Assembly: GCA_026395685.1 (NCBI GenBank)
Contig: JAPLYG010000009.1
Coordinates: 81,519-145,518 of the forward strand
Source of the DNA: Candidatus Parcubacteria bacterium
GTDB lineage: Bacteria; Patescibacteriota; Patescibacteriia; CAIXNZ01
Direction: 5' to 3'
DNA length: 64,000 nt
Each line of letters begins with the position of its first letter. Position 1 is the stretch's first letter. Of the stretch, positions 17,163 through 64,000 are shown one piece after another. The notes under the pieces were generated by a model. It searched no databases and was not told the origin of the DNA. It saw nothing but the letters and a program-made list of their open reading frames with translations. The position numbers and the translations under genes are program-made.

Positions 17163-19598
17163 TTATTTTCTGATCTGCGCGCCGAATTTCGCTTCCAAAT
17201 GCTGTAAAACTTTCTGATGAATAATCTGAACTTCATCCATGGTTAAAGTTTTGTCATCAGAACGGTATTCAATTCTGAATGCAATTGATTTCTTAGCTTC
17301 AGGAATGCCCTGGCCTTCATATACATCAAAGAAAGTAATTTTGCGGATTAAATCCTTGTCCACATCTTTAACCGCCTGATAAATTTCCTCCCAGAGAATT
17401 TTTTTGGCTATAATCATGGAAATATCCAAATCAATGCTCGGGAATTTGGGAATCGGCTTGTATTTGATCACGTCCGTATATAATGATGCTAATTTAGTTA
17501 AATTAAATTCAAAAATTGAGACCTTGGATTTCAAACCCAGCTTATCATACAAATTATCAGCGGGTTCGGAAATATAACCAATGTCTTTAGCCTGAACTAA
17601 AATTTTTATTGCCCGATTCATTTTGGCAAAAGGTAACACATCAACAATTTTCTCCAGTTTATAATCAAAATGCAATTGGCTTAATAAACCGGCAATGACA
17701 TTTTTCGCAATATAAAACGGCTTATCATTTTTCTTTTCGCAAATAATGCCGGCAATTAATTTTTCCTGCAAGGGTAAGCTTTTATCTCCTTTATCAAAGA
17801 CTTTTTCGCCTTTGGCTTCCGGCCAGAAAATCGAACCAACTTCGAATAAACCGAAATCATCATAATTGCGACAGTTGCTGACTGCATTGCCTAACAAATT
17901 AGGAATTAACGAACGGCGCAATAGATTCCAGTCTTTGGACTGCGGGTTGGCAATGTGGATATGATCTTCTACTTTTAAACCCAAACTTTTCACCTGGTCC
18001 TCGCCCACAAAAGAATAATTATAAACTTCGTTTAAACCAAAACCATAAGCCAGAAGCTGTTTGATTTTTCGTTCCAAATCACGTTCAATATTGGCTTCGG
18101 GCTTAGAGATCTCGATCATGGGCAAGCTTGATTTCAAATTGCTATAGCCATAAATCCTAATTACTTCTTCAACTAAATCCTCAGGGATGGAAATATCCTT
18201 CGTGGCGCGCCAGGTTGGTATAGTCACGGTCAAATCCTTAACGCTTTTTTTAACCTCAAAACCCAAACTTGATAAAATCTTCACGACCTTATCTTTGGGA
18301 ATTTCCTGACCGACCTTCTTAGTTATGAAATCAAAACTTAGTTTGATCGGCCCCTGATTTAATTTAAATTTCTTAACATCTTCAATTTTGGAGACTAATT
18401 TTGCCTGAGGACAAAGCTGCAAGATCAATTCAATGGCGCGCTTAATCCCCCACTCGGACAAATTAGGATCCAAAGATTTTTCAAAACGGATTGAAGCTTC
18501 AGAACGTAAACCTAATTTAGATTCTGTCTGACGAATAGAAACATGGTCAAAATTTGCTGATTCAATAATGACTTTTTTGGTTTTATTATCAATTTCAGTA
18601 TTAGCTCCGCCCATAATGCCGGCAATGGCCACTGGTTTAACCGCATCAGCAATTACCAGCATACTTTCATCCAATTCCCTGGCTTGATCATCCAGAGTAT
18701 CTATTTTTTCACCTTTTTTCGCATTACGAACGACAATGCGGTGTTCTGCCAACTTATCATAATCAAAAGCATGAAGAGGCTGGCCGATTTCCATCATCAC
18801 ATAATTGGTAATATCAACAATATTATTAATAGAGCGCATACCCACGCTAGCTACTCGCTTTTTCAGCCAGTCTGGTGATTCTTCAATCTTAATGCCTTCC
18901 AAAACTACTCCGCAATATCGCGGGCATAATTTAAAATCCTCAATTTTAATATCCAACCGACTGTCACCCTGAGGCTCTCGAAGGGTGACTTTGAAATCCT
19001 TTAATTTTTCGCCTATCAAAACGGACACTTCCCGGGCAATGCCATAATGAGACCATAAATCGGGTCGATTACTTAATGATTTATTATCAATTTCATAAAT
19101 CGTATCATCCAAACCTAAAACTTTACTCAAAGGCTCGCCTACTTTAGTTTTACTGTCCAAAATTAAAATTCCAGTGTGATCTTTACCCAAACCAAGCTCA
19201 TCTTCAGCGCACAGCATACCGCTGGATTCCTCACCGCGCACTTTAGCTTTGCTAATTTCCATGCCATTGGGTAATTTGGTTCCGATTGTTGCGACCGGAA
19301 CTTTTTGACCCACAGCGATATTTGGCGCACCACAGACAATATTCAATTTTCCTTCGTTCGCCGAAGCTTTATGCGAAGGCGAATCAATATTAACCACACA
19401 TAACTGCAACTTATCAGCATTAGGATGTTTTTTAACTTCTAAAATTTCGCCGACAATCACGCCATTCAAACTTTGCGCCTGGTCAGTCATACCTTCCACT
19501 TCAGCCGTGGATATAGTCAATTTAAAACCCAGCTCTTTGGAAGATAAAGAGTTTGGTATTTTTACAAAATCGGAAAGCCAATTTTTTGAGATATACAT
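17163..19598 (-). CDS. pheT: Phenylalanine--tRNA ligase beta subunit
   Basis: 811 aa. It has the N-terminal tRNA-binding/OB region, B3/4 and B5 domains and the C-terminal FDX-ACB domain (…GIMGGANTEIDNKT…). It carries a 27-bp palindromic insert at 18963-18989. Confidence 0.95.
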   Translation of the reverse strand: MYISKNWLSDFVKIPNSLSSKELGFKLTISTAEVEGMTDQAQSLNGVIVGEILEVKKHPNADKLQLCVVNIDSPSHKASANEGKLNIVCGAPNIAVGQKVPVATIGTKLPNGMEISKAKVRGEESSGMLCAEDELGLGKDHTGILILDSKTKVGEPLSKVLGLDDTIYEIDNKSLSNRPDLWSHYGIAREVSVLIGEKLKDFKVTLREPQGDSRLDIKIEDFKLCPRYCGVVLEGIKIEESPDWLKKRVASVGMRSINNIVDITNYVMMEIGQPLHAFDYDKLAEHRIVVRNAKKGEKIDTLDDQARELDESMLVIADAVKPVAIAGIMGGANTEIDNKTKKVIIESANFDHVSIRQTESKLGLRSEASIRFEKSLDPNLSEWGIKRAIELILQLCPQAKLVSKIEDVKKFKLNQGPIKLSFDFITKKVGQEIPKDKVVKILSSLGFEVKKSVKDLTVTIPTWRATKDISIPEDLVEEVIRIYGYSNLKSSLPMIEISKPEANIERDLERKIKQLLAYGFGLNEVYNYSFVGEDQVKSLGLKVEDHIHIANPQSKDWNLLRRSLIPNLLGNAVSNCRNYDDFGLFEVGSIFWPEAKGEKVFDKGDKSLPLQEKLIAGIICEKKNDKPFYIAKNVIAGLLSQLHFDYKLEKIVDVLPFAKMNRAIKILVQAKDIGYISEPADNLYDKLGLKSKVSIFEFNLTKLASLYTDVIKYKPIPKFPSIDLDISMIIAKKILWEEIYQAVKDVDKDLIRKITFFDVYEGQGIPEAKKSIAFRIEYRSDDKTLTMDEVQIIHQKVLQHLEAKFGAQIRK
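18963..18989. repeat. 27-bp GC-rich palindromic element (copy 1), in frame inside pheT
   Basis: gtcaccctgaggctctcgaagggtgac is a perfect inverted repeat and encodes VTLREPQGD. A copy differing at only one base is present in murI at 23465-23491. Confidence 0.8.
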
Positions 19599-19609
19599 AT
19601 TGATTTTTA

Positions 19610-20230
19610 TTAATTTTCGCGATAATCGATTTGGAATATTGATTGGTCATTTAGTTCATAATTGCGGAGGGAACTGTATTTGTATTCGCTAAGATCTTTA
19701 ACTATACCGTGTTTATATGGGTTTTTGTGAATGTAATCTAACTTCTCCTGAAATTTTTTGTCAGAATAGACATTAAAATCGTAAAATTTTGATTGCCAAA
19801 GACGATATTGCAAATTTCTTTTGTGCGGTGTCTGGTCTCTCGGGATTGCGCGCAGCATCTGCTCTGTTAACCCCATCCCCCTTCGGGTGGAGCGGAGCAT
19901 CGGCTCTGCGCCTGGGTCAGCTTGAGACAAGAGCAGATGCTCTTGTCTTCCCGAACTTGCGTATAAATCAATAATTCTGCGCGCAGCGGCTCCTTTAATC
20001 CCCTGCATAATTTTTGAAATGGTCAATTTTTCATCCTCAAAATAAATCAAACAATGCACATGATCGGGTAAAATTACATAACCATAAATTTTCAAACCAT
20101 ATTTCTGACGATAAAAATCAAATTCCTCCAATAAAATTTTACAGCAATCTTCATCCTTAAATATCGGCCGTCTTATATTCGTCACAAACGTCACGAAATG
20201 AATATCACCCGGTTGATTAATCCTAATCAT
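19610..20230 (-). CDS. Y1 (HUH) transposase family protein, IS200/RAYT-like
   Basis: HUH motif in LPDHVHCLI. The C-terminal WQSKFYDFNVYSD...YIHKNPYKHGIV...YKYSS matches the IS200-like/RAYT catalytic-Tyr region. A GC-rich in-frame insert lies at about 19825-19965. The gene sits between pheS and pheT. Confidence 0.75.
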   Translation of the reverse strand: MIRINQPGDIHFVTFVTNIRRPIFKDEDCCKILLEEFDFYRQKYGLKIYGYVILPDHVHCLIYFEDEKLTISKIMQGIKGAAARRIIDLYASSGRQEHLLLSQADPGAEPMLRSTRRGMGLTEQMLRAIPRDQTPHKRNLQYRLWQSKFYDFNVYSDKKFQEKLDYIHKNPYKHGIVKDLSEYKYSSLRNYELNDQSIFQIDYREN

Positions 20231-20239
20231 TCTAATTGT

Positions 20240-21280
20240 TTAAAATTGGTTAAGAAATCTGAGATCCCCACTCTGCAATAACCTAATATCGTCAATATTA
20301 TACTTAAGCATCACCAACCTGGTTAAACCAAACCCAAAAGCAAAACCCTGGTATTTATCGGGATCAACATTGCCGGCTTTCAGGACATTGGGGTGGACCA
20401 TGCCGGCGCCGACAATTTCCAGCCAGCCGCTATTTTTGCATAATTTACAGCCTTTGCCGTGACACAAAAAGCAAGTTACTTCTCCGTTGACGCCCGGCTC
20501 CACAAAAGGATAATATTTGGGACGCAATCGTATTTTAGTGTCTTCGCCGTATAACTTTTGAGCCACGGTTTCCAAAAACCCGCACATATCAGTGAAAGAA
20601 ATATTTTTATCAATCATTAGGCCTTCCAGCTGATAAAATGTATGCTCGTGGCGCACGTCAGTAGCTTCATTGCGAAAACAACGGCCCGGAATCACTACTC
20701 GCAAAGGCGCGCCGTGTTTTTGCATGGCTCGAACCTGCACAGAGGAAGTCTGAGTCCTCATCACTAAATTTTCCGTTCCGTTCACAGTCTTGGGATCAAT
20801 ATAAAAAGTATCCTGCATATCGCGCGCCGGGTGCCAGGTCGGAATATTTAAACCTTCAAAATTATAATAATCAGATTCCAATTCAGGACCGTCTAATACC
20901 ATAAAGCCCATTGACTTAAAAATATCTTCCAATTCCGTTTGTACCTGAGTTACGGGATGCAAATGACCAAGCTTGTATTTCTCAATTTCCAAAGTAACAT
21001 CAATAAAATCACGCTCTAAATCCTCATCAATATCTAAATTCAAATCTTGTTTTTTTTGCTCCAAAGCTTTGCTAATTTCATTTTTGATCTCATTGGCCAC
21101 TGCACCAATTTTAGGACGCAAATCATCAGATACTTCTTTAATATCCTTCAAAAGCTTGGCCAGTTCCCCACTTTTGCGGGAAAAATACTTATTCTCAATA
21201 TTCTGCCATTCTTCTGAATTGCGGATATTCTCAATTTCCTTAAGCGCCTGCTCTTTTAAATCTTTTAATTTAATTTCCAT
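20240..21280 (-). CDS. pheS: Phenylalanine--tRNA ligase alpha subunit
   Basis: Class II aaRS motifs (…FRNEATDVRHEHTFYQLEGL…, GAGMVHPNVL, GFAFGFGLTRL). Length is 346 aa. Confidence 0.95.
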   Translation of the reverse strand: MEIKLKDLKEQALKEIENIRNSEEWQNIENKYFSRKSGELAKLLKDIKEVSDDLRPKIGAVANEIKNEISKALEQKKQDLNLDIDEDLERDFIDVTLEIEKYKLGHLHPVTQVQTELEDIFKSMGFMVLDGPELESDYYNFEGLNIPTWHPARDMQDTFYIDPKTVNGTENLVMRTQTSSVQVRAMQKHGAPLRVVIPGRCFRNEATDVRHEHTFYQLEGLMIDKNISFTDMCGFLETVAQKLYGEDTKIRLRPKYYPFVEPGVNGEVTCFLCHGKGCKLCKNSGWLEIVGAGMVHPNVLKAGNVDPDKYQGFAFGFGLTRLVMLKYNIDDIRLLQSGDLRFLNQF

Positions 21281-34289: not shown

Positions 34290-37200
34290 TTATCTAAAAG
34301 TTAAATTGCCTATTAAGTATTCTCCCGTATAACCCCGGTTTTCCTGTCCATTAGACGCTCCCCAGCTGTATATATAGGTTCTCAAAGTTCTAGCGCAACA
34401 TGGGCTTAGGAAATCTGTATCCCTTACATCTGCGACAACTAATATATTTAACGGAGAGCCAACAGTTAATCCGTTATTTGCCGTTAAGTTAATATAGGAA
34501 AAATCACTGCCTCCGTAAGTAACATTAGGGAAATATCCGGTACCCATTAAATTTTCAGGAGCCACTGAATCTTTATAAATTTTAACCTCTACAGTATTGT
34601 CTCCGATTTGACCAGGCTCACTGCCAATTAATGTACCGTTTAACTTTAAAGCTAACTGCGTTAAAACAGTATTTTGATTACAATCGGCAACTATTTGCGC
34701 GGCAGTCCTACCGATGATAATAGAGGAGCTATCTTTGGATCTAATTAGACGGTTCCCCGTTTCACTGATAGCGGGATTAAGTGTTACTGCTGTTGCTGTT
34801 CGAGAACATTGGCATTGCCCTGATACTGTATTCATTCCATAGCCTGGCGCGCATAAAAAGTTGCATGTGCCCATACTTAAATTATAATTTTTTACATATA
34901 CAGGCTGCCATTTCGTGCCGGACCAGGCTTGAGTATAAGAACTTTCGCCGTTCCATTGCTGACCGGTATTCAAAGCGCCGCAGGAGATTGTCCTGGTCAG
35001 AGCCTCACACTTTTTTGCAGAGGCATTGTACTCATAGTTCATCTTGCATTTAAAATTGCAGGAGCCCGCGGTTGTAGCATTATAATTTTTTACATATACA
35101 GGCAGCCATTCCGAACCGTTCCAGGTTTGTGTGTATGAGCTGTCGCCATTCCATTCCTCACCGTCATATAAATCCCCGCAGGAAGCTCCCTGGGTCTGGG
35201 AGCATTTATGCGTACTCACATCACTGCATTCTCTGCATATTTGCCCCATTGAATCTATTGATGTTTCCGCGCACTTTTTTGATTGGCAGATGCTCTGGGT
35301 GATTGTTCTGGTATATTCCCTCATGTTTCCTTCCGGGTCTAATTTACAGATTAACTGATCTCCTATCGGCCTGCAGTCCGCATTGCTCTTGCAGTCATTC
35401 AGCCACACCGCCCTGCCAAGTTCGCATATGCCCAAATCAGGCGCTGTCTTGTTTATTATTTTATCAGATTTCGTTGCTATGCCCAGCAAAAGTCCGACAT
35501 GATCCCTGAAAAAGTCACAATTATTCTCATCTAAGCATTTACTTTGGATGAGTTCGGATCTTAGGGGTGTATCCGCCTTGTATGCGGTTTGGAGTGATAT
35601 CATGAGCCTTATGATTTGGCCGATATTAGCTTTATTAAGGAGTGATGATCCTAAAGCGCCTTCCGTAAGTATGTTGCCAATGCAAGAATCTGTCTGATCC
35701 ATTTTTCCGCACCCGTCCACTGCCATATTTAATGTTCCCCGGTGATTACTTACAGCTCCTCCGTCAGAATCTGTCGGAACATTCACCGTAAGGGGGTCAT
35801 TTTCCAAAATGCCTGCCGCTACTACCTGATATTCTCTGCCGTCATTGCCTGTGAGTTTTAAATCAGCGCTTTGGTAGCATATTGCCGGGCATCCGCACAG
35901 ACCTCCAGGTACACCGTCGCAGTTAGAATCCCCGCACTTAAGGTCGCCCTGACTAAAATAAGGATAACCATTATTAATAGAATCACGAATATCCCAAATA
36001 TTTTCATTGGCGTTGTCATCGTACGGATTAGAAACAAAATCCCAAGGCGTTGTCAGGCCAGCTGTCGCAAGAGAAGTGAATGTTTCTATACTTTTCATCT
36101 CCGCAGTTGTCTTGCCCGTGGTGCCGGAAGGGCATATGTCCCTTGATATGCCGGATATTTCAGTGTCCCAGAAGCTATTTTGGCAACTTTCAGGTAGGCC
36201 ACCAGCTACGACTCCCGCTACATTAAACCAATCAGGAGTGGCTTCTATTTTTCCGGCGACATAGGAATTGGAAATTAAACCGAAATTCATTCCTGCTAAA
36301 CCTCCTATCGTAGGAGTCAAGGATGTTGACTTAACAAAAACTCTGGAGTAAGAATTTGAAATTTGTCCCTCATATTGATTTTCTCCCAATAATCCACCGC
36401 AATATTGATTACAATTAACATCCCCTGTCGCATAAGAATTTGATATATCAGCATCATTTTTGCCTACTATTCCCCCCGCATATGTGTCACCTGTAATATC
36501 TACATCTTCCAAGCCGACATTTTTTATAATAACCCTTCCGCCTAATCCGTAAGCGGATGTCTTACCAAATAAACCAATGGGCTTTTTAAAATTAGAATCC
36601 GGCCTGTTTACATATAATCCTTTGATAATATGATTTTGTCCGTCAAATGTTCCTGAAAACGGCGTTCCTTCGGTTCCAATCGGTTCAAACCCCGCGCCGT
36701 TGTTCCAATTTACTGTATCAGAACAGTCAATATCATTGGTTAATACATAATTATTATGGATGGGGAAATTATTAATGGCTTGCAATTCCTCGCAGTCAGA
36801 TATTGATATGGTTTGTGGAGTAATTGATTTTGATTTCATTACAACAATCGCGCCAAATTCCATACCGCAGCTGCCATAATCAATTTTTAAATAACCGTTA
36901 TCATGACTACCAGCATCTGCGCCCCAACTGTTCTTTAATATCCAATAGCCTTTTTCGTCATTATACCCTACTAGGACTACAGCATGGTTTGCCATGGGGG
37001 GATCAAATGAACATCTAAATATGCCATTAGAATCAAAAGTGCCGTTAAGATCCCAAGAAAAAGTTACGCTAAGAGGCCCGTAGTTAATAAGATATTGTTT
37101 AATAATTGCAGAATCAGGAGGCAAAGATAACCACTGATTTATTTTTACTACCCTGCTTTGCCAGTTAGCGCAACGGTCACTACAAGTAGCATCACTGCAT

Positions 37201-38372
37201 GAATTATTAGCTCTATAATTGCAAGTGGTGCTGTCAGGCTTACATGAATTGCCGCACATGCACCCAGATCCATCTATATAAGGCATGCAAGCTTCATCAG
37301 GTATCCCGAAGTCCTTAATAAATGTCAGAGCACCCCCAGACCATCCTCCGCAACAATTTCCGGCATTAGAACAATCAGAAACCAGATATTCTTCTGAAAG
37401 ATCCAAATCAAGGTCAGGATTATTGGCATCAATATTGGCAACTGCCTCCGTAGCACCCACAGTTCCAAATGCCCAGCAACTGCCACAACTCCCCTGATTT
37501 TTTACAGAAGTCATCCAATTGGCACCATTGTAATCTCTCCAGTCAAAGGATGTGGGAAGTGATCCTGAATCGCCTAAAGTGGTCATTTCCACAGTTTGTG
37601 CTTGTGCGGTGTGAGATAACAAAGCAGCCTGTATCTGCTTATCTATAGATTCTGTTTGCATAGACACTGATGGTTCTGTTTTAGATATATTGTTTACCTC
37701 CCCGCACGGTCCGCAATAGCCTCCCTGGTCAAGAAGAGCTTTGACTGCTTCTTCAGCGACACACAAAGTTTTTTCAGCGGCACTTCCAGGCTTGCTGCAG
37801 ACAAACGCCTTGCCTTTGCCGCAAGGAAATTTGCTGCAAGTCTTGTCCAAATTGCAGCTGGTCGCGGACTTTTTATATAAATCCATTAAATCAACGACTG
37901 ATCCGACTTCCTGACCTTTTTTATCCACGCAAACCGCGTATTCCCGGGAAAAAGGATTTTTGCCGTCAGTTTTTATTTTCAAGTCATAGCCTTTTTGGGC
38001 GCAGTATGAATGCTCTTTGCCGCAATATCCCTGGAGAAATTTCCATTCCTCGCATTCCACTTTGTCCGGAAAAATACAGACGCCATATTGGCCATTTTCA
38101 TTTTCCCTGATTTCATAGGAATAACCCAGTTCTTTGCAATGGACTGCCGCGGGATTGGCAAAGCCCCTGCCGATTCCATCAGCAGGAATTTCAGCAGGTT
38201 GAGTTGCGACCGGTTGAGGCTTGGTTGCGGTTTCAACTGTCTTTTTAGGCTTTTGCATTGCCGGAATAATAGCAAAAGCCAAAGCGCTTACTCCGAGCAA
38301 AACAGCTGTCGCAATTGCCAGCTGAATATCAATGCTTGATGTTGTTTTGGTATAAGTTTTCATAGAGATCAA
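34290..38372 (-). CDS. Giant secreted papain-like cysteine peptidase (C1A) with DUF333 domain(s) and Cys-rich repeats (1360 aa)
   Basis: Signal/TM at the N-terminus. DUF333: GFANPAAVHCKELGYSYEIRENENGQYGVCIFPDKVECEEWKFLQGYCG. C1 catalytic Cys box: NQGSCGSCWAFGTVGATEA. His/Asn region: ANHAVVLVGYNDEKGYWILKNSWG. Two tandem ~70-aa Cys/Trp repeats lie near the C-terminus. Confidence 0.8.
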   Translation of the reverse strand: MISMKTYTKTTSSIDIQLAIATAVLLGVSALAFAIIPAMQKPKKTVETATKPQPVATQPAEIPADGIGRGFANPAAVHCKELGYSYEIRENENGQYGVCIFPDKVECEEWKFLQGYCGKEHSYCAQKGYDLKIKTDGKNPFSREYAVCVDKKGQEVGSVVDLMDLYKKSATSCNLDKTCSKFPCGKGKAFVCSKPGSAAEKTLCVAEEAVKALLDQGGYCGPCGEVNNISKTEPSVSMQTESIDKQIQAALLSHTAQAQTVEMTTLGDSGSLPTSFDWRDYNGANWMTSVKNQGSCGSCWAFGTVGATEAVANIDANNPDLDLDLSEEYLVSDCSNAGNCCGGWSGGALTFIKDFGIPDEACMPYIDGSGCMCGNSCKPDSTTCNYRANNSCSDATCSDRCANWQSRVVKINQWLSLPPDSAIIKQYLINYGPLSVTFSWDLNGTFDSNGIFRCSFDPPMANHAVVLVGYNDEKGYWILKNSWGADAGSHDNGYLKIDYGSCGMEFGAIVVMKSKSITPQTISISDCEELQAINNFPIHNNYVLTNDIDCSDTVNWNNGAGFEPIGTEGTPFSGTFDGQNHIIKGLYVNRPDSNFKKPIGLFGKTSAYGLGGRVIIKNVGLEDVDITGDTYAGGIVGKNDADISNSYATGDVNCNQYCGGLLGENQYEGQISNSYSRVFVKSTSLTPTIGGLAGMNFGLISNSYVAGKIEATPDWFNVAGVVAGGLPESCQNSFWDTEISGISRDICPSGTTGKTTAEMKSIETFTSLATAGLTTPWDFVSNPYDDNANENIWDIRDSINNGYPYFSQGDLKCGDSNCDGVPGGLCGCPAICYQSADLKLTGNDGREYQVVAAGILENDPLTVNVPTDSDGGAVSNHRGTLNMAVDGCGKMDQTDSCIGNILTEGALGSSLLNKANIGQIIRLMISLQTAYKADTPLRSELIQSKCLDENNCDFFRDHVGLLLGIATKSDKIINKTAPDLGICELGRAVWLNDCKSNADCRPIGDQLICKLDPEGNMREYTRTITQSICQSKKCAETSIDSMGQICRECSDVSTHKCSQTQGASCGDLYDGEEWNGDSSYTQTWNGSEWLPVYVKNYNATTAGSCNFKCKMNYEYNASAKKCEALTRTISCGALNTGQQWNGESSYTQAWSGTKWQPVYVKNYNLSMGTCNFLCAPGYGMNTVSGQCQCSRTATAVTLNPAISETGNRLIRSKDSSSIIIGRTAAQIVADCNQNTVLTQLALKLNGTLIGSEPGQIGDNTVEVKIYKDSVAPENLMGTGYFPNVTYGGSDFSYINLTANNGLTVGSPLNILVVADVRDTDFLSPCCARTLRTYIYSWGASNGQENRGYTGEYLIGNLTFR

Positions 38373-38438: not shown

Positions 38439-38476
38439 ACGGGGCTCCGCTCCGAAGCTTCGGTGCGGAGCCCCGT
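38439..38476. repeat. 38-nt near-perfect GC-rich palindrome (REP-like hairpin) in the intergenic region
   Basis: acggggctccgcTccgaagcttcggTgcggagccccgt has only two central mismatches. It shares the GCGGAGC/GCTCCGC core with the hairpins at 25561-25597 and 19880-19900. Confidence 0.6.
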
Positions 38477-38711
38477 TCCCACCACTATATTAAAAAAATC
38501 CCTTTATTTCGACGGAATAACACCCAATCAACAATTATCAATCATCAAACAATAACTAAATTATAATACCGAATCATATAAACAAATTAGAATTTAGCAT
38601 TTTGATATTTGAATTTGTTTGATGATTGTAGTTTGATTATTGATTATTTAAAAAATAAAATTACACAACCTCATACAACTTCATAAAACATCATATAACC
38701 TCATACAACTT

Positions 38712-41383: not shown

Positions 41384-41531
41384 TATGATAAATTATTGAT
41401 TTTATTGATAATATGTATTAATAATAGCCTATTAACCCAAACTTTTCAACAAAATAAAAAGACAGAAATCCCTAAATTTCCGTCTTTCTCACATAACTTT
41501 AAACTTTGCACTTTAAACTTTACACTTCAAG

Positions 41532-41603
41532 TGCCCCCGCTAGGAATCGAACCTAGATCACAAGATCCGCAATCTTGTGTTCTATCCATTGAACTACGAG
41601 GAC
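41532..41603 (-). tRNA. tRNA-Arg (anticodon GCG)
   Basis: The reverse strand reads GUCCUCGUAGUUCAAUGGAUAGAACACAAGAUUGCGGAUCUUGUGAUCUAGGUUCGAUUCCUAGCGGGGGCA. It folds into a cloverleaf with a 7-bp acceptor stem (two G·U pairs), D stem GUUC/GAAC, anticodon stem CAAGA/UCUUG with loop UUGCGGA, and T arm CUAGG-UUCGAUU-CCUAG. No CCA is encoded. Confidence 0.7.
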
Positions 41604-41858
41604 TTATTTAATTTGTGTGTACTCCATTGCCCGCCAGGGGCGGGCAGGCTGCCTTTGGCGGAAACTACGAGGACCTACTAAGTTGAAAATTCAAAGTGCA
41701 AAGTTTAAAGTTACAGTTAGTAGTTTAAATTTTTGGAATATATTTTTATTTTACGATACCCAATTAGCGTAACGAATATCCAGACCGAATAACGAAAAAC
41801 TATTTTAAAAGGGAGACAAAAATATCTCCCTCTCAAGTATAGAATATTTCTAAAAATT

Positions 41859-48565: not shown

Positions 48566-51500
48566 CTAAGTTTTTTCCAAAGACTTTACATTAGAGGCAA
48601 TATCAGTCAAAGAGCGCCTGACTCTGTCCTTGTCCTGTATCGCCAGCGGATTAGTCTGGATCTCCCGGACTAAATTGGTCATGGAATCTCGCAGTTTATT
48701 AGCCACTGACTGGTCAAATCTCGCACCCAAGCTTTCCTCCATCTTTTTGAGTCCGCTATCAAGATTTTCCTGCATTCTTTTCACTCCCCTCAAAAGCAAA
48801 TCATTGGTAGCAGCACCATCAACGGCCGTAGTACCGGCCTTTATAAAATTATTATAATAATTAGAAACATTTACTGTCGTGGTAGTAGAACTAGGTGCTG
48901 CCTCCGGTCTTGGAGCTGGAGCAGGAGCTGGAGCTGGCGCAGGTGCTGGTTCAGCAGTTCCTGCTGGCGCAGGTGCTGCGGGTTTTGGCTTAGGTGCTGG
49001 AGGAGGAGTTCCTGCTGGCGGAGGAGTCCCTGCTGGCGGTGGTGTAACTGGTGGCTCTTCCTCTTCCTCAGGTTCCTCTTCAGCTGATATATCTACATCT
49101 TTATCTCCTCTTTTTCTGGGAATAGCAAACTTATAGAAGCCAATACCTTGGGCTCGGCTCAAAATACCATACATTTGTCCGCGCTGTCCCTTTAGGTCTT
49201 TACCCTTCAACTCTTCTAATTCTCCAATTAATTCCTCAAGCTTATCAATCTCCATAAATTCAGGAGAATAACCGGCAGTTTCAACTTCTTCCCTGATAGA
49301 ATATGCCAACGCCTCTAACCCTGCCTGAGCACTGGTAATTTTATCAGGAGTAGCTTGACCACTATTAACCTTGGCCAAAAGTCTTTTCAATCTGTCAGAA
49401 ACTTTGCTTTCAGAAGTATTCTTAATCTCACGCTGGTTAATGACATCTCCGCCATGCTCAACATAATCCGCATTGATTTCATCAAAATTTTCTATCTGTC
49501 CGACTTCTGTTGTAGCCATTTTCTTCATACTGCGGGAAACTATTTCTTGTGCCTGTTGCGGAGGTACACCTTTAACTGATTCTAATAAATCCGGCATTTC
49601 TTTTTCCATTTTACTAATAACTTCAGCTGCATTTCGTTCTTGCGGAGTAACTGCTTTGCCCTCACGCATCTTATCCTTAATGCCTCTATAATCATAAAGC
49701 GAGTATTCTTCGCCTTTAATCTTAAATTTCTTTCTTTGTCCGCTTTGATTAAAGAAGATAACTTCAGCCATTTCCTTGCTGGTTTCTCCAGTGACAATAT
49801 CATGGCCAGTACCCTGGACATATTTACCGCCACTAGTCTTATAGCCTTCCTGCAAAGCCTGCATATTTTCCGTGGAATACAACTCTTTATGCATCAAATC
49901 CATCTGCTCTACTTTGCCTTTAATAAACTTATCTCTTGCCTCACCGGTTAAACCTTTTTTGCCTGCTTCTTCTTCAGCATATTTCCTTCTGCCTGCTTCA
50001 TCCTTAGAAGCTGTAATATAGTGCAGCTGCATATCTTCTTCCTTATCCTTAATGAATTTCTTTTTTTCTTCCGGAGTAGTTATTCTGCCTTCTTTTTCCT
50101 CTTTATCTGCTAAATCTGCTACGAGCTTCTTCCTCTCAGCGTCTGTTCCTGTTATCACTTTAATCAGATCACCGGTTGCTTTCTTGCCATTTTTCAGACC
50201 CTGTTCGCCAGACTGCTTCATGCGACCGGCATTTTTTGACAGACCCATCCACAACGCCATTTTTTGCGCAATATTTCCTTCAGCCAGACTTCCTGCCTGC
50301 TTATTATTCATCGCCTTAGTTACCTTTGAAGTATCAGCTGCAGCCGCACTCTTCATCGTGTCTTTAGCTTTTTGGATTTCACCTGCCGTACCAGCCTGCA
50401 CCAGTTGAAATTCATTGGTTTCAGGATTTCTGACTACAGCTGAAACAGATATGCGGTAACCGGTTTTTTCCTCATGTTTATCCTCCCATTTTTTTGATAA
50501 TGCTTCCATATTGGCAACACCTCCTTTAGCTGATTTTTCCAGATCAATTACTTTCTTGCCGGTGGTTTCATCTGTTTTTGTTTTAATACCATAATGTTCA
50601 AAAACACCCAAGTCTAAAGCTTTCTGCATATCATTATCATCAATTAAACCCTGCTCACCTTTGAGATTTAAAAGCGCCAGAAAACGATCGCCGGTAGCAG
50701 TTTTCATCCGCTCGTTAAGTATTTTCGGATCTTTATCTGAACCAACCAGGCGTTCTTGTTTTTCATAATTCTCAATTTCTTTTTGTCTTTGTTCCACCAA
50801 AGCGCCCGGCTTGCCGCCGATCCATTTTTCTACTTGGGCAGTCGAACGCTCTCCCAGAGTTTCACGTCCTTTTTTGGTGGCTACCAGACGAATACCTTTG
50901 GAAATAGCGCCAGAGATGCCACCGCCACGTTCTACTCTTTCTAATCCTTCCTTAGCTGTTAAGCCGGCATATTGTCCGACTTTTCCGGCTGACCATTTGG
51001 CTGTGCGCTCCATTCTGCCCAAAGTCGCATCCTGGATCTTGCCTGCTGCTTTGCCTGCATAGCTGGCGCCCAAAACTTTCATTTCAGAAGTAAATTTCAA
51101 ACCGGCGACCAGCATAATAATGCCCAGCATGTACTTGATAACATAATCCAGACGCCCGGCTTTGGAATTCGCCACTGCATCATCCAGATTTGCCTGTCCC
51201 AGTCCGCCTTCACTGACCTTGGCCAGTTCCGTGGCATACATTACCGTATAATTATTGTTCAGTGTCAGAATTGAAATCCATAAAAAGAAAGCTAAAAGCG
51301 GCCCAACCAGGCAGTATTCTATAAAACTGTTTAACCAACGGCTGCCATAACCTCCGATTCTGCCGCTGACTCCGGTAAAAGCCATAGAAGCAAAGGCAAG
51401 CGGTGAAAAAACAACCAAAACCCAAAGGACAATTATTCTAAAAATTAAAATAATCAGAAAGATCGCGACCACAATCAAGGCGACGACCACATACATGAGC

Positions 51501-52606
51501 CCCAGTAATTTGGAAGAAATCAGCTGGAAGCTGGTTAAGCCTTCATTATTGGTAATCGGATCCCAGATATCGCGCATGCCTAACCCTTTAAATAAGTTCT
51601 CCCCGAGGATATCTTTATAAGCATTAACAAAAGTAAACATCACAACCTGAGACAGGTCGATGATCAGCCCGCAAATTGTACGGGAAAAATTAACCACCAC
51701 GGCCATGATCAGCAGTTTCGGCAAAAGCTTCTGCCACTGGTATCTTTCAATTTTCAGCACCGTAACAAAAGCCACAAAAAGCAAAGCCAGCACGAAAAAC
51801 ATATTGACCAGATCGCGCAAAACAATCCACCCCTGAATAACATAATATGAATTGATAAAATGATTAAATTTACTGACATTAACCACAAGCTCAAAAAATG
51901 CCACTAAAAGTTTGCCCAAAAGGCCGATAACTATATTTATAATAAAAGCCAGCACCTGGATTACAGCATTTGCCTCCTTGTTCCCCTCCTGGGATGTTTG
52001 CCCGTCACCGGTGCCTGTTGATGCAGGCGCAGGCGTCTCAGTCGCTGGGCTAACTTTAGGCTTACAGCAAATTGGCGCAGCCGCCTCACTACAATCCATT
52101 ACCGGAATCTCATCTTCAGTAGTCGTATCACAGCTAGGGCCGGGGCTACAATTGCCTCCTGCTGCAGCACATGCTGTTCCCGGAGCTGTCGGCGCTAAAG
52201 GCGCTGCCGTAGGTTTACAACAAACAGGAGTAGCCCCACTACATTCTGAGCCAGGAGCAAGAGTATCAGGACCAAGACAACCGCCATTAATTACACACGT
52301 GCCATTTTCAGTTGCTGTGCCTGTAGGTGTCTTGCCAGTACAGGGGGTAGCTGCCGGAGCTGCGCAACAAAAAGTCTCAGTGGCTGCACAAGCAGTCATG
52401 CCGGCAGGTACTGTGGTAATAGTCAAATTACTGGGAGTACACACACTTGCAGAACAAGTACCATTTTTCGGTATACCAGCCAAAGTACCATTGCAACTTG
52501 CAGCCAGCACCGGGCTTGCTACAAACAGAAGCAAACCCAGCCCCAGTGTCAGACCAGTCAGGAAAAGGAATGTTAATTTGTTTTTAAGAAAAGATAACAT
52601 CACCAT
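48566..52606 (-). CDS. Polytopic VirB6/TrbL-like membrane protein with Cys/Thr-rich N-terminal ectodomain and a long disordered, Pro-rich C-terminal tail (1346 aa)
   Basis: Signal peptide, Cys-rich region, then six or more TM helices in residues about 210-450, consistent with VirB6-like topology. This is followed by ~800 aa of K/E-rich coiled sequence and PPVTPPPAGTPPPAGTPPPAPKPKPAAPAPA...PAPAPAPAPAP. Confidence 0.45.
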   Translation of the reverse strand: MVMLSFLKNKLTFLFLTGLTLGLGLLLFVASPVLAASCNGTLAGIPKNGTCSASVCTPSNLTITTVPAGMTACAATETFCCAAPAATPCTGKTPTGTATENGTCVINGGCLGPDTLAPGSECSGATPVCCKPTAAPLAPTAPGTACAAAGGNCSPGPSCDTTTEDEIPVMDCSEAAAPICCKPKVSPATETPAPASTGTGDGQTSQEGNKEANAVIQVLAFIINIVIGLLGKLLVAFFELVVNVSKFNHFINSYYVIQGWIVLRDLVNMFFVLALLFVAFVTVLKIERYQWQKLLPKLLIMAVVVNFSRTICGLIIDLSQVVMFTFVNAYKDILGENLFKGLGMRDIWDPITNNEGLTSFQLISSKLLGLMYVVVALIVVAIFLIILIFRIIVLWVLVVFSPLAFASMAFTGVSGRIGGYGSRWLNSFIEYCLVGPLLAFFLWISILTLNNNYTVMYATELAKVSEGGLGQANLDDAVANSKAGRLDYVIKYMLGIIMLVAGLKFTSEMKVLGASYAGKAAGKIQDATLGRMERTAKWSAGKVGQYAGLTAKEGLERVERGGGISGAISKGIRLVATKKGRETLGERSTAQVEKWIGGKPGALVEQRQKEIENYEKQERLVGSDKDPKILNERMKTATGDRFLALLNLKGEQGLIDDNDMQKALDLGVFEHYGIKTKTDETTGKKVIDLEKSAKGGVANMEALSKKWEDKHEEKTGYRISVSAVVRNPETNEFQLVQAGTAGEIQKAKDTMKSAAAADTSKVTKAMNNKQAGSLAEGNIAQKMALWMGLSKNAGRMKQSGEQGLKNGKKATGDLIKVITGTDAERKKLVADLADKEEKEGRITTPEEKKKFIKDKEEDMQLHYITASKDEAGRRKYAEEEAGKKGLTGEARDKFIKGKVEQMDLMHKELYSTENMQALQEGYKTSGGKYVQGTGHDIVTGETSKEMAEVIFFNQSGQRKKFKIKGEEYSLYDYRGIKDKMREGKAVTPQERNAAEVISKMEKEMPDLLESVKGVPPQQAQEIVSRSMKKMATTEVGQIENFDEINADYVEHGGDVINQREIKNTSESKVSDRLKRLLAKVNSGQATPDKITSAQAGLEALAYSIREEVETAGYSPEFMEIDKLEELIGELEELKGKDLKGQRGQMYGILSRAQGIGFYKFAIPRKRGDKDVDISAEEEPEEEEEPPVTPPPAGTPPPAGTPPPAPKPKPAAPAPAGTAEPAPAPAPAPAPAPRPEAAPSSTTTTVNVSNYYNNFIKAGTTAVDGAATNDLLLRGVKRMQENLDSGLKKMEESLGARFDQSVANKLRDSMTNLVREIQTNPLAIQDKDRVRRSLTDIASNVKSLEKT
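48879..49060. repeat. Tandem GC-rich microsatellite-like repeats encoding the PAPAPA/PPAGTPPP tract
   Basis: (gctgga)n/(gcaggt)n and two-and-a-half copies of ggaggagtYcctgctggcgg lie inside the 1346-aa gene. Confidence 0.6.
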
Positions 52607-61996: not shown

Positions 61997-62112
61997 AAAA
62001 TTGAATTTAAAATTCAAAATGCAAAGTGCAAAATTACAAATCAAAAATTAAAATTTTGGTATTCTTTTATTTTAATAAAACATTCCAGAATTTTAAACTA
62101 ACAACTGCAACT

Positions 62113-62457
62113 TTAAACTTTGAACTTTGAACTTTCAACTTCATCCTCCAGGGCCTCCTTCCGCACCACCTTCGTCACATCCTTTTCCACTTTATCCAAT
62201 TTAACCAAAGCCCGAAACATTAAATAAAACAGAATCAAAATAGAAATATATATCACCAGATCAACGCCGCGACCGACGCCGACCATATTAGCGGCATAGG
62301 AAGTAACATCGGGAAATAAGACTAAAAATGCTACTGCAAACCAAAAAATCGTCCACAAAATTAGTTCCTGCAGGGAAATATTCTTGTCCTTGTAGCGCAT
62401 GGCGACTTTGATTACGGCGAACAGGATGAAAAGGATTAGAATAATTTTAATTAACAT
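62113..62457 (-). CDS. DUF2304-like small membrane protein (GT2 partner)
   Basis: 114 aa with three TM helices and a charged C-terminal tail. Proteins of this type normally sit directly beside DPM1-like GT2 genes. Confidence 0.55.
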   Translation of the reverse strand: MLIKIILILFILFAVIKVAMRYKDKNISLQELILWTIFWFAVAFLVLFPDVTSYAANMVGVGRGVDLVIYISILILFYLMFRALVKLDKVEKDVTKVVRKEALEDEVESSKFKV

Positions 62458-62634
62458 ACTTAAAAAATTAATTGCTTAGTTATACGTTTATCGGTTTCCT
62501 GCCTTCGCCCGTATGAGACGGGCTACGGCAGACAAGCGTTTTTCGTTACGTCAATAGTTTAACGAAAAACGTAACGATCATCGATACCGAATAACGATAA
62601 ACCGATTTTATTTTCTAATTATTTTTGCCATCAA

Positions 62635-63240
62635 TTATATTTCATCAATTAATCCGGGATACTTTGTATAAATATATTGATAATTTGCCGCATCAAAAAT
62701 GTTATGCTTTGCGGGATTATTATAAAGATATCGCATATGTTGATTAAAATCATCATAATTGCGAATATAATGATCGTGAAGTGATTTTTGCCAATGAAAT
62801 TTTACATACAAAGTTTGATTTAATCCATATTTTGCCACAAATTGACGGCGCGTTGTAATCAAATATTCATAATGCTTTTCGATTATCTCTTCATAAATTT
62901 TATATTCCTCCCCCAATTGAAGGAGCGATTTGCAAATCGCTCCTTCGTCGACATAACCTAAGATAAAATTTATATTCCTGGTATAGTGTCTTTTGATAAA
63001 TTGCATTATTTTCGATAAATCCATCGCTTCATACGGCAAAAACATTAAATGAAAATGATCCAATAATATTACAAACGAATATAAATCAAATTTGTGCCTT
63101 TTTTTCGCCAATTTTAAAATTTCAATAAACAACTCGCAAAAAATCGACTCCTTAAAATATTCAACCCGGTTATCGGCAACACCTGTCACAAAATAAGTCG
63201 CCCCTTCAAAATATATCCGTTTTTGCGCTCCTTTATGCAT
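62635..63240 (-). CDS. Y1 (HUH) transposase family protein, IS200/RAYT-like (second copy)
   Basis: HUH motif in LLDHFHLMF. The C-terminal WQKSLHDHYIRNYDDFNQHMRYLYNNPAKHNI...YQYI is conserved with the 19610-20230 protein. A perfect 28-bp palindrome lies at 62919-62946 in frame. Confidence 0.75.
   Translation of the reverse strand: MHKGAQKRIYFEGATYFVTGVADNRVEYFKESIFCELFIEILKLAKKRHKFDLYSFVILLDHFHLMFLPYEAMDLSKIMQFIKRHYTRNINFILGYVDEGAICKSLLQLGEEYKIYEEIIEKHYEYLITTRRQFVAKYGLNQTLYVKFHWQKSLHDHYIRNYDDFNQHMRYLYNNPAKHNIFDAANYQYIYTKYPGLIDEI
62919..62946. repeat. Perfect 28-bp palindrome inside the second Y1 transposase gene
   Basis: gaaggagcgatttgcaaatcgctccttc equals its own reverse complement and encodes EGAICKSLL in frame. 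Confidence 0.8.
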
Positions 63241-63915
63241 TTACTTACCTATTATTTTTGAAAATAAAAGATCCCGAATAATCCTCAATCCGCTGCCAAA
63301 ACGCTGGCCATAATTATGATATAAAATTTCTACCGGAATTTCCTGATATTTTAAATTATTCAGCCGAACTTGCTCCAAAATTTCCGTAGCATGAGCCATG
63401 CCATCCTGATTAATAGTAATTTTTTCTGCAGCATTTTTTGATACAGCTCGAAAGCCGCAATGCGCGTCAGTTAGCCTTATACCTGTAAACAGCCAGTTGA
63501 AAATTATTGCCGGATAGTGAATAAAATATTTTTTTGACCAGGGCGTCTGGGACTTTTTATCCAGAGATCTGGAACCAAAAACAATATCAGCCTGACCGGC
63601 TATAATCGGGGCAATTATCTGGGCGATATCTTTGACCTGCATCTGGCCGTCACCGTCAAAATGCACGATTATTTCCGCACCCTGATTCAGGGCAAATTCA
63701 GTTCCGGTCTGCAAAGCCGCGCCCTGTCCCCTATTTATAAAATGCTTTAACAATTTAACATTTAACCCTTTAACAATTTCCGCCGTATTATCAGTTGAGC
63801 AATCGTCAACAACTACAATATTAGGCGTAATCTCTTTTAATTGAGAAAGAACGCCGCTGATATTTTTTTCTTCATTGTAAGCTGGAATCACGATCCAGAC
63901 CTTTTGATCTAACAT
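63241..63915 (-). CDS. Polyprenyl-phosphate glycosyltransferase, GT2 (DPM1/GtrB-like)
   Basis: VWIVIPAYNEEKNI...VVVDDCSTDNT...NRGQGAALQTG...HFDGDGQ. Its stop directly abuts the transposase start codon. Confidence 0.85.
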   Translation of the reverse strand: MLDQKVWIVIPAYNEEKNISGVLSQLKEITPNIVVVDDCSTDNTAEIVKGLNVKLLKHFINRGQGAALQTGTEFALNQGAEIIVHFDGDGQMQVKDIAQIIAPIIAGQADIVFGSRSLDKKSQTPWSKKYFIHYPAIIFNWLFTGIRLTDAHCGFRAVSKNAAEKITINQDGMAHATEILEQVRLNNLKYQEIPVEILYHNYGQRFGSGLRIIRDLLFSKIIGK

Positions 63916-64000
63916 AAAAGAGTTTAAAGTTCAAAGTTTAAAATGCAAAGTTACAGTGTAAAATTCAAAATTTTGGAATATATATTATTTAAAAAAACTT

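Follow-up and report, generated by a model that had tools for sequence, protein, structure and literature searches.

RAYT-class genes with in-frame palindromes between operon partners in a Parcubacteria genome fragment

RAYTs (tyrosine transposases associated with repetitive extragenic palindromes, REPs) are the textbook example of domesticated bacterial transposases. Quentin, Siguier, Chandler and Fichant (2018) sorted TnpA-Y1 proteins into 12 subclasses, with the signature Y---NP marking class 2 (TnpA-REP) and Y---Q the IS200 transposases, and reported, for subclass 2.4, tnpA-REP genes that hold REPs in frame, as well as double-foot REPs of the form GT[AG]G...C[TC]AC (PMC6006769). In E. coli, TnpA-REP is single-copy, REP-flanked and accompanied by about 600 dispersed REPs, the extragenic REPs having bulged stems, and the substrate that it recognises, GTAG plus palindrome in inverted pairs, is what defines a REP, BIME or REPIN (PMC8266576). 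Here we describe two genes, Y1a and Y1b, from 64,000 nucleotides of Candidatus Parcubacteria bacterium DNA (GCA_026395685.1, contig JAPLYG010000009.1, positions 81,519 to 145,518; the window). Y1a stands between pheS and pheT, and Y1b between a family 2 glycosyltransferase (GT2) gene and a DUF2304 gene. We read both as operon-embedded RAYTs, each with a maintained in-frame palindrome, and give this reading a probability of roughly 0.72. The palindromes are the most informative feature of the two genes, and an earlier sequence-only reading of this DNA overlooked them. Loci used for comparison are given L numbers.

Family identity and comparison with described systems

Both proteins, taken for Y1 transposase-like in the sequence-only reading, do match that family in a profile search, Pfam Y1_Tnp scoring 51.1 bits with Y1a and 34.0 bits with Y1b at a cut-off of 23. 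The NCBIfam RAYT model NF047646 (REP_Tyr_transpos) passes its cut-off of 80 for both (124.5 bits for Y1a, 86.5 bits for Y1b), whereas the IS200/IS605 model NF033573 stays below threshold for Y1a (34.2 bits, cut-off 55) and has no match in Y1b. The motifs of Y1a are DHVH (H57/H59), W145-Q146 and YIHKNP (Y166-IHK-N170-P171) and those of Y1b DHFH, WQ and YLYNNP; H57, H59, W145, Q146, Y166, N170 and P171 are invariant in an alignment of 20 sequences. E. coli TnpA-REP (4ER8) is the best match among structures in the Protein Data Bank by phmmer (E = 1e-8) and also by Foldseek with the AlphaFold2 model of Y1a (E = 2.6e-9, target TM score 0.68), the core of which is modelled at a local confidence (pLDDT) above 90. 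Between the window and three relatives the catalytic core evolves with a ratio of nonsynonymous to synonymous rates (dN/dS) of 0.07-0.13, which argues that these are functional genes. On profiles and motifs, Y1a and Y1b are therefore best classed as RAYT-class Y1 HuH proteins, domesticated relatives of IS200 and not insertion sequences. Nor are they copies of one insertion sequence, because they are only 28% identical to each other; a tblastn search found no Y1 gene in the window besides these two.

A very different reading would make them active or recently active IS200/IS605-type elements that target spacers just past stop codons. The Pfam Y1_Tnp matches, the absence of Y1b from the same site in a relative (L154) and the varied contexts of homologues, always a few nucleotides from a neighbouring gene, are what such elements would lead one to expect. 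Against this stand the low IS200 score and a tyrosine motif of the form Y..NP in place of Y...Q (PMC6006769, Table 1), the lack of subterminal hairpins around Y1a, whose spacers measure 9 and 11 nt, the 28% identity of the two copies, the absence of duplicates or of any repeat family covering either gene, and the age of the pheS-Y1-pheT arrangement, which diverges along with its neighbours. We consider active elements highly improbable, and IS200 identity as such is essentially excluded by the profile scores, the tyrosine motif, the missing end hairpins and the low identity. The sequence-only reading had offered, as one option, domesticated single-copy Y1 enzymes acting like RAYTs. Domestication and RAYT character are borne out by the passed RAYT model and failed IS200 model, the low dN/dS, the absence of near-identical copies and the synteny of Y1a; 'single-copy' has to be dropped, as the window holds two diverged paralogues and related metagenome-assembled genomes (MAGs) at least two, each at its own conserved operon position.

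Subclass 2.4, equivalent to RAYT Group 4 of Bertels et al. 2017, resembles the present proteins in length (about 200 aa), in its WQ and Y-I/L-x-x-N-P motifs, in having few diverged copies per genome and in its long double-foot REPs, seen here in most relatives within the Y1a clade. It also shares the palindrome within the gene, so that the phenomenon as such was already known. The subclass 2.4 tyrosine motif YIxNNP fits the Y1b type (YLYNNP/YIYNNP) and, loosely, the YIHKNP of Y1a; comparable motifs also mark subclasses 2.6 and 2.7. Differences lie in the HuH motif, DH[VF]H here and NH[IFV]H there; in the site of the insert, which in the structural model follows the helix past the HuH strand (between helix 71-93 and strand 150-154) and in the paper lies at beta3:alphaC; in the host, Patescibacteria/Parcubacteria being absent from the paper's listing; and in the lack of dispersed REPs from the window, together with a Y1b clade that is footless and devoid of extragenic copies in the data searched.

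With E. coli TnpA-REP (RAYT group 2, subclass 2.2; 4ER8) the proteins share the HuH/Tyr core and the WQ...Y..NP.KHG region that contacts GTAG, and the GTAG-footed REPs beside the gene in Y1a relatives recall the E. coli REPtron. Unlike in the REPtron, the palindromes here lie within genes and have few or no mismatches, and the window shows no dispersed population alongside them. IS200/IS605 TnpA (subclass 1.1) has in common with Y1a and Y1b the Pfam Y1_Tnp domain, the HuH fold and a hairpin-dependent single-strand-DNA chemistry, predicted here from sequence. Its Y...Q motif, length of about 150 aa, multiple near-identical copies, subterminal hairpins and frequent tnpB are features not found in the present genes; no tnpB lies near Y1a or Y1b, the neighbours of which are housekeeping genes. 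The Rickettsia palindromic elements and intragenic REPs (Ogata 2000; Di Nocera 2013) are likewise in-frame palindromes that add 20-30 residues in tolerant loops. Those occur at varied sites in many unrelated genes, unlike the palindromes described here, which occupy one fixed position of a RAYT family and are conserved across clades.

Among the papers that we searched, none joins RAYT or COG1943 with Patescibacteria or the candidate phyla radiation (CPR). New here are the CPR host, the operon-embedded paralogues, the lack of a REP population in the 64-kb window and the footless intragenic palindrome of the Y1b clade. The window shows RAYTs retained as several diverged paralogues in essential operons of a CPR genome that is ultra-small and streamlined, with strong purifying selection acting on them. 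When CPR MAGs are annotated, such genes are better named 'RAYT-like' than 'transposase', and they should not be taken as signs of mobile elements that are active or of breaks in the assembly.

In-frame palindromes between the HuH and tyrosine motifs

There are 14 perfect GC-rich hairpins in the window, and the two longest sit in Y1a and Y1b, at homologous protein positions between the HuH and tyrosine motifs. The Y1a module has a GC content of 55-60% against 40% for the window, folds at -57 kcal/mol (z = -3.45) and is homologous to GGGTAG...CTACCC doublets of its relatives. When the linker DNA of about 33 homologues was placed through the protein alignment, a shared architecture emerged of GGGTAG, one to three GC-rich hairpins and CTACCC, all in frame. 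Some 25 homologues have modules of the form GGGTAG-hairpin-hairpin-CTACCC with differing arm sequences, and most relatives in the Y1a clade show clear GGGTAG...CTACCC feet. The encoded linker peptides vary among paralogues (GSQEHLLLA, GRRKPSLSP, GGQGLNALPG, GSRSFYASAG) with complementarity retained. In an alignment of 21 sequences (A2), 91.8% of cells are paired against 79.3% in column shuffles, none of 500 shuffles reaching as high; 12 pairs have changes on both sides, and slid partners pair at 35-49%. Synonymous divergence (dS) in the linker is 0.5-0.9 compared with 0.96-2.5 in the core for the same pairs, and hairpin 1 shows no difference between the window, L005 and L006 despite a core dS of 0.96-1.92. 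The AlphaFold2 model drops to pLDDT < 50 at residues 100-140, between helix 71-93 and strand 150-154, and the linker peptide is therefore predicted to be a disordered surface loop. Concerted evolution of the palindrome within a genome was considered and rejected, linkers being 44-54% identical between paralogues except in a recent duplicate pair in L013; the paralogues' linkers differ, and each paralogue therefore has its own palindrome type. The pattern of substitution indicates that selection keeps the pairing and the synonymous sites, not the peptide.

In the Y1a clade the palindrome is a double-foot REP doublet (GTAG...CTAC), and the REPs that flank the gene in relatives belong to its family. 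In the 126-nt pheS-Y1 spacer of L003 an extragenic doublet equals the intragenic one at 64 of 66 positions, and extragenic copies likewise lie beside a RAYT gene in L013 (twice), L002 (twice), L008, L007 and L015. Such doublets stand directly upstream of the gene in L003, L013, L002, L008 and L015. The pattern GTAG-N4-GAGC-N4-GCTC has 54 matches in Patescibacteria and Dehalococcoidia RAYT loci, some of them within genes and others outside, and none in 80 pheS control loci.

The palindrome of Y1b has a 12-bp stem and folds with z = -3.18. Members of its clade carry perfect palindromes of 28-40 nt with a palindromic centre (TGCA, TATA or GGCC) and no GTAG feet. The Y1b palindrome recurs, with compensatory changes, in L069, L071, L072 and L153; in L071 the stem is extended to 18 bp, and the L072 version, GAAGAAGCGATTGGCCAATCGCTTCTTC, has its changes compensated. 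A 10-residue peptide compatible with a perfect 28-nt palindrome is present at the aligned position in 63 of 79 Y1b-clade proteins but in just 2 of 415 windows taken from them at random, and 7 further proteins allow one mismatch; these 79 homologues are known as proteins only, and compatibility is a necessary condition and not a proof. The result agrees with the six Y1b-clade loci for which DNA is available. The peptides themselves vary widely (EGAICKSLLR, EGANNYSRLQ, EGADHDPRLQ, EGRDYNPGLH), and 1.3 Mb of sequence searched contains no extragenic copy of a Y1b-type palindrome.

These data bear on whether the palindromes are selfish REP or REPIN insertions tolerated in a disordered loop, persisting by re-insertion, gene conversion or template-switch repair. 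Quentin et al. suggested that in-gene REPs are merely tolerated, with little impact on the protein (PMC6006769), and the present loop is disordered and peripheral in the model, its peptide is not conserved, near-identical extragenic copies lie beside the gene in relatives, and the modules vary in length and in arm number from 1 to 3 hairpins. However, the insert takes the same protein position in clades 28% identical and across phyla, every variant preserves the reading frame, three lineages (core dS 1-1.9) that have no extragenic copy nearby agree fully in hairpin 1, and 80% of the 79 Y1b-clade proteins are palindrome-compatible with no extragenic copy in the 1.3 Mb. We regard selfish insertion as improbable. 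Compensatory change and a low synonymous rate together speak for maintenance of the palindrome inside the gene and against an insertion that is merely tolerated.

Maintenance could also act at the level of RNA, the palindromes being mainly structures for mRNA stability, processing or ribosome traffic, with consequences for the pheS:pheT ratio or RAYT dosage and with the Y1 protein secondary. Both modules fold well as RNA, at the z scores given above, and sit in operons that seem to be co-transcribed, no terminator separating the genes; synonymous sites of the linker are constrained, and REPs are known to act post-transcriptionally (PMC3733652; PMC8266576). Several observations count against this. 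The purifying selection on the catalytic core indicates that the gene is not a mere carrier, recognition at the DNA level is suggested by the GTAG/CTAC feet, which occur on both strands, and by the identical copies that relatives carry outside the gene, and the palindromic centre of the Y1b type is typical of a DNA inverted repeat. A predominantly RNA-level function seems to us unlikely, if somewhat less so than selfish insertion.

Operon position, history and proposed function

The sequence-only reading placed two co-oriented Y1-like genes between operon partners, and open reading frame (ORF) coordinates and Pfam assignments of the neighbours agree. It gave Y1a 9 nt from pheS, as measured (20231-20239), and 10 nt from pheT, where the spacer is 11 nt (19599-19609); Y1b does follow the GT2 stop, the 1-nt offset then stated corresponding to a spacer of 0 nt, with the Y1b ATG abutting the stop. 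Tight spacers are usual across the compact genome of the window. The interrupted pairs are normally contiguous, as had been proposed: pheT follows pheS by 5-30 nt in most of 80 metagenomic loci whose pheS is at most 63% identical, and the GT2-DUF2304 pair is adjacent in a relative. The claim that no flanking hairpins are obvious is correct for Y1a, the flanks of which hold no REP and are too short for one, and incomplete for Y1b, where the downstream spacer folds strongly and one of its hairpins is GTAG-footed. For the other option raised, a precise targeting of spacers with terminator or REP hairpins, there is no positive evidence; tight spacers are ordinary here, and the empty spacer of L154 carries no REP.

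Synteny supports an old residence of Y1a. The order M50-pheS-Y1-pheT is kept in L005, where pheS is 85% and Y1 79% identical and pheT lies 11 nt after Y1. In L003, a 332-kb contig, the order is M50-pheS-Y1-...-pheT (pheS 71%, Y1 64%, pheT 65% identical) with CBU_0592-like and NIF3 genes between Y1 and pheT. Divergence of Y1a is in step with that of M50, pheS and pheT and therefore fits vertical inheritance. No Y1 gene occupies the pheS-pheT junction in any of the 80 more distant loci. About 15 of them hold other small genes there (NUDIX, GIY-YIG, NIF3, GNAT; among them L074, L077, L090, L096, L102, L116, L135, L142, L144 and L148). Since unrelated small genes occur at this place in several lineages, the junction tolerates insertions, and small genes have repeatedly landed or been retained there.

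Paralogues of the Y1a clade occupy other positions, in the order TPR, Y1, Big_1, Y1, S8 peptidase in L001, L002, L007 and L008 and next to pyruvate kinase in L004. Several related MAGs supply two or three RAYT loci each, and RAYT genes in these MAGs are small families of diverged paralogues. At the Big_1-S8 peptidase position of L007 (7361-7663) there is a remnant, about 100 aa long, of a second Y1 gene with the REP doublet still present, and RAYT paralogues can therefore decay. Identity between some paralogues is mosaic (L008_5001 with L012_6001, L002_2902 with L007_5001), at 65-67% in the N-terminal and 85-86% in the C-terminal core, which suggests recombination or gene conversion among them.

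The Y1b locus is less widely shared. L154, a 565-kb contig, has the block epimerase-GT2-DUF2304-ksgA-260 aa-giant protein in the order of the window (DUF2304 89%, GT2 76%, ksgA 61% identical) with an AT-rich GT2-DUF2304 spacer of 148 nt at the place of Y1b and no Y1 gene across 12.3 kb; GT2 and DUF2304 are also adjacent in one further contig. Y1b at this site is a lineage-specific gain or was lost in L154. The empty spacer of L154 does not align with the window, and exact insertion boundaries could not be read from filled and empty sites, the spacers being too diverged. No positional orthologue at GT2-DUF2304 was found among the four closest Y1b homologues looked up, which are co-oriented with a flanking gene 0-10 nt away.

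The Y1b-DUF2304 spacer folds at -44.7 kcal/mol (z = -4.1) and holds, besides an 11-12-bp AT/CG hairpin, the GTAG-footed hairpin 62499-62531 (minus strand CTGCCGTAGCCCGTCTCATACGGGCGAAGGCAG). The latter is REP-like in form, single-copy in the window and unrelated to the internal palindrome of Y1b. The same spacer includes at 62570-62602 one copy of a 33-nt direct repeat, CGTAACGAnnATCnAnACCGAATAACGAnAAAC, the other copy of which (85% identity) lies upstream of tRNA-Arg at 41768-41800; this could be a shared promoter or operator-like element.

Our preferred reading combines these observations into a model in which Y1a and Y1b are predicted RAYT-class single-strand-DNA endonucleases, a sister family to the IS200 transposases. 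They probably have no promoters of their own and would most likely be transcribed by read-through from the host operon. Promoter and terminator scans around Y1a gave no signal above shuffle expectation, and co-transcription is suggested because no terminator-like site lies between pheS, Y1a and pheT. Y1a may have entered the pheS-pheT spacer in the ancestor of a small Parcubacteria clade and been inherited vertically thereafter, possibly arriving as a REP-plus-RAYT unit whose external REP was later lost in the lineage of the window and L005, and Y1b would be a gain, or its absence a loss, peculiar to one lineage. The palindrome would represent the cognate hairpin substrate or binding site of the enzyme, linked to its gene. 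As the only copy in 64 kb, it could serve self-recognition or act as an mRNA structure and would not feed a large REP population. Palindrome and RAYT may thus form a compact, putative enzyme-plus-substrate pair suited to biochemical tests.

A number of points weigh against this reading. The feet of Y1a are degenerate in the window (GGGAAG...TCCACCC, with GAAG...CCAC for GTAG...CTAC) and the Y1b palindrome has no GTAG feet, which by analogy would impair recognition if the E. coli rules applied. The window, to which our REP and RAYT counts refer, shows no REP population: a GT[AG]G-hairpin descriptor matches 3 times, compared with 2.3 +/- 1.6 in shuffles, the scan for perfect hairpins reveals no such population either, a repeat finder and motif search detect no further copy of either palindrome, and blastn-short none of any relative's REP module. 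The property of REP association from which RAYTs take their name is therefore not apparent within these 64 kb. A gene in L006 that is 76% identical to Y1a lies at the Big_1-S8 position and not at pheS-pheT, so positional orthology is imperfect, with translocation, paralogue conversion and differential loss inseparable; of the closest Y1b homologues (61-73% identical), two follow recJ, one precedes tsaD and one a LigD_N gene. The compensatory pattern could reflect new REP copies taking the place of old ones, or quasi-palindromes repaired by template switching, and not selection in place, and catalysis on the intragenic hairpin is pure inference.

A bolder extension, which we put forward tentatively and think doubtful, is that RAYTs of Patescibacteria are 'self-contained REPtrons', their sole cognate hairpin being kept inside their own reading frame over long periods by selection on pairing. 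If this were true, the enzyme would have as its target, or as the means of its regulation, a structure formed by its own gene or mRNA. Autoregulation, programmed nicking or inversion of the symmetric module, or tuning of the host operon would then come into question, with no upkeep of dispersed REPs, and the genes would offer a tractable minimal system for the role of domesticated RAYTs.

Feature coordinates and other observations in the window

Coordinates of the two loci and their palindromes are collected in Table 1.

Table 1. Features of the Y1a and Y1b loci (window coordinates)
Feature	Position	Strand	Description
pheT	17163..19598	minus	Pfam B3_4, B5, tRNA_synthFbeta, FDX-ACB, tRNA_bind; downstream operon partner of Y1a
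Y1a	19610..20230	minus	206 aa; RAYT-class (TnpA-REP-like) HuH/Tyr protein
Y1a REP-type module	19839..19955	minus	In frame, about residues 92-131; outer stem and three REP-like arms
Y1a hairpin 1	19925..19948	minus	AGACAAGAGC-ATCT-GCTCTTGTCT, 10-bp perfect stem; hairpin sequence AGACAAGAGCATCTGCTCTTGTCT
pheS	20240..21280	minus	Pfam tRNA-synt_2d (314.8 bits) and Phe_tRNA-synt_N; upstream operon partner of Y1a
DUF2304 membrane protein gene	62113..62457	minus	Pfam DUF2304 (88.1 bits); usual GT2 neighbour
Y1b-DUF2304 spacer	62458..62634	minus	177 nt; structured
Y1b	62635..63240	minus	201 aa; second RAYT-class paralogue; HFH, WQ, YLYNNP
Y1b palindrome	62919..62946		Perfect, 28 nt, GAAGGAGCGATTTGCAAATCGCTCCTTC, encodes EGAICKSLL; linker position homologous to the Y1a module
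GT2 glycosyltransferase	63241..63915	minus	Pfam Glycos_transf_2 (90.5 bits); directly upstream of Y1b

An AT-rich repeat family built on AAAGTTYAAAGT units has copies at 41494-41527, 41680-41748, 62004-62069, 62073-62141 and 63921-63986, which bracket the GT2-Y1b-DUF2304 block and tRNA-Arg. An inverted pair between DUF2304 and ksgA (61998-62145) forms a long AT-rich hairpin (-37.7 kcal/mol, z = -5.1), and the GT2-DUF2304 spacer of L154 contains analogous AT-rich inverted low-complexity repeats. The family could represent terminators or MITE-like elements (resembling miniature inverted-repeat transposable elements). At tRNA-Arg(GCG) (41531-41603, minus strand) the first 12 nt, GTCCTCGTAGTT, recur about 65 nt upstream (region 41604-41680) with a GC-rich hairpin, GCCCGCC-CCT-GGCGGGC, between the two copies; the arrangement resembles a scar left where something inserted or integrated at the 5' end of the tRNA.

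Another GC-rich hairpin, at 38439-38482 on the minus strand, has a 14-bp stem (GGGAACGGGGCUCCGC...GCGGAGCCCCGUC), folds at -41.6 kcal/mol (z = -5.2) and has no Rfam match; an Rfam scan at gathering threshold returned tRNAs alone. Located about 60 nt upstream of a 1360-aa ORF (34290-38372), it may be a leader or regulatory RNA. That ORF is one of three very large ones on the minus strand, the others spanning 48566-52606 (1346 aa) and 52613-60205 (2530 aa). The longest is rich in Cys and has a hydrophobic segment at its N terminus, and a giant gene stands in the syntenic position after ksgA in L154; the very large ORFs are probably CPR surface proteins.

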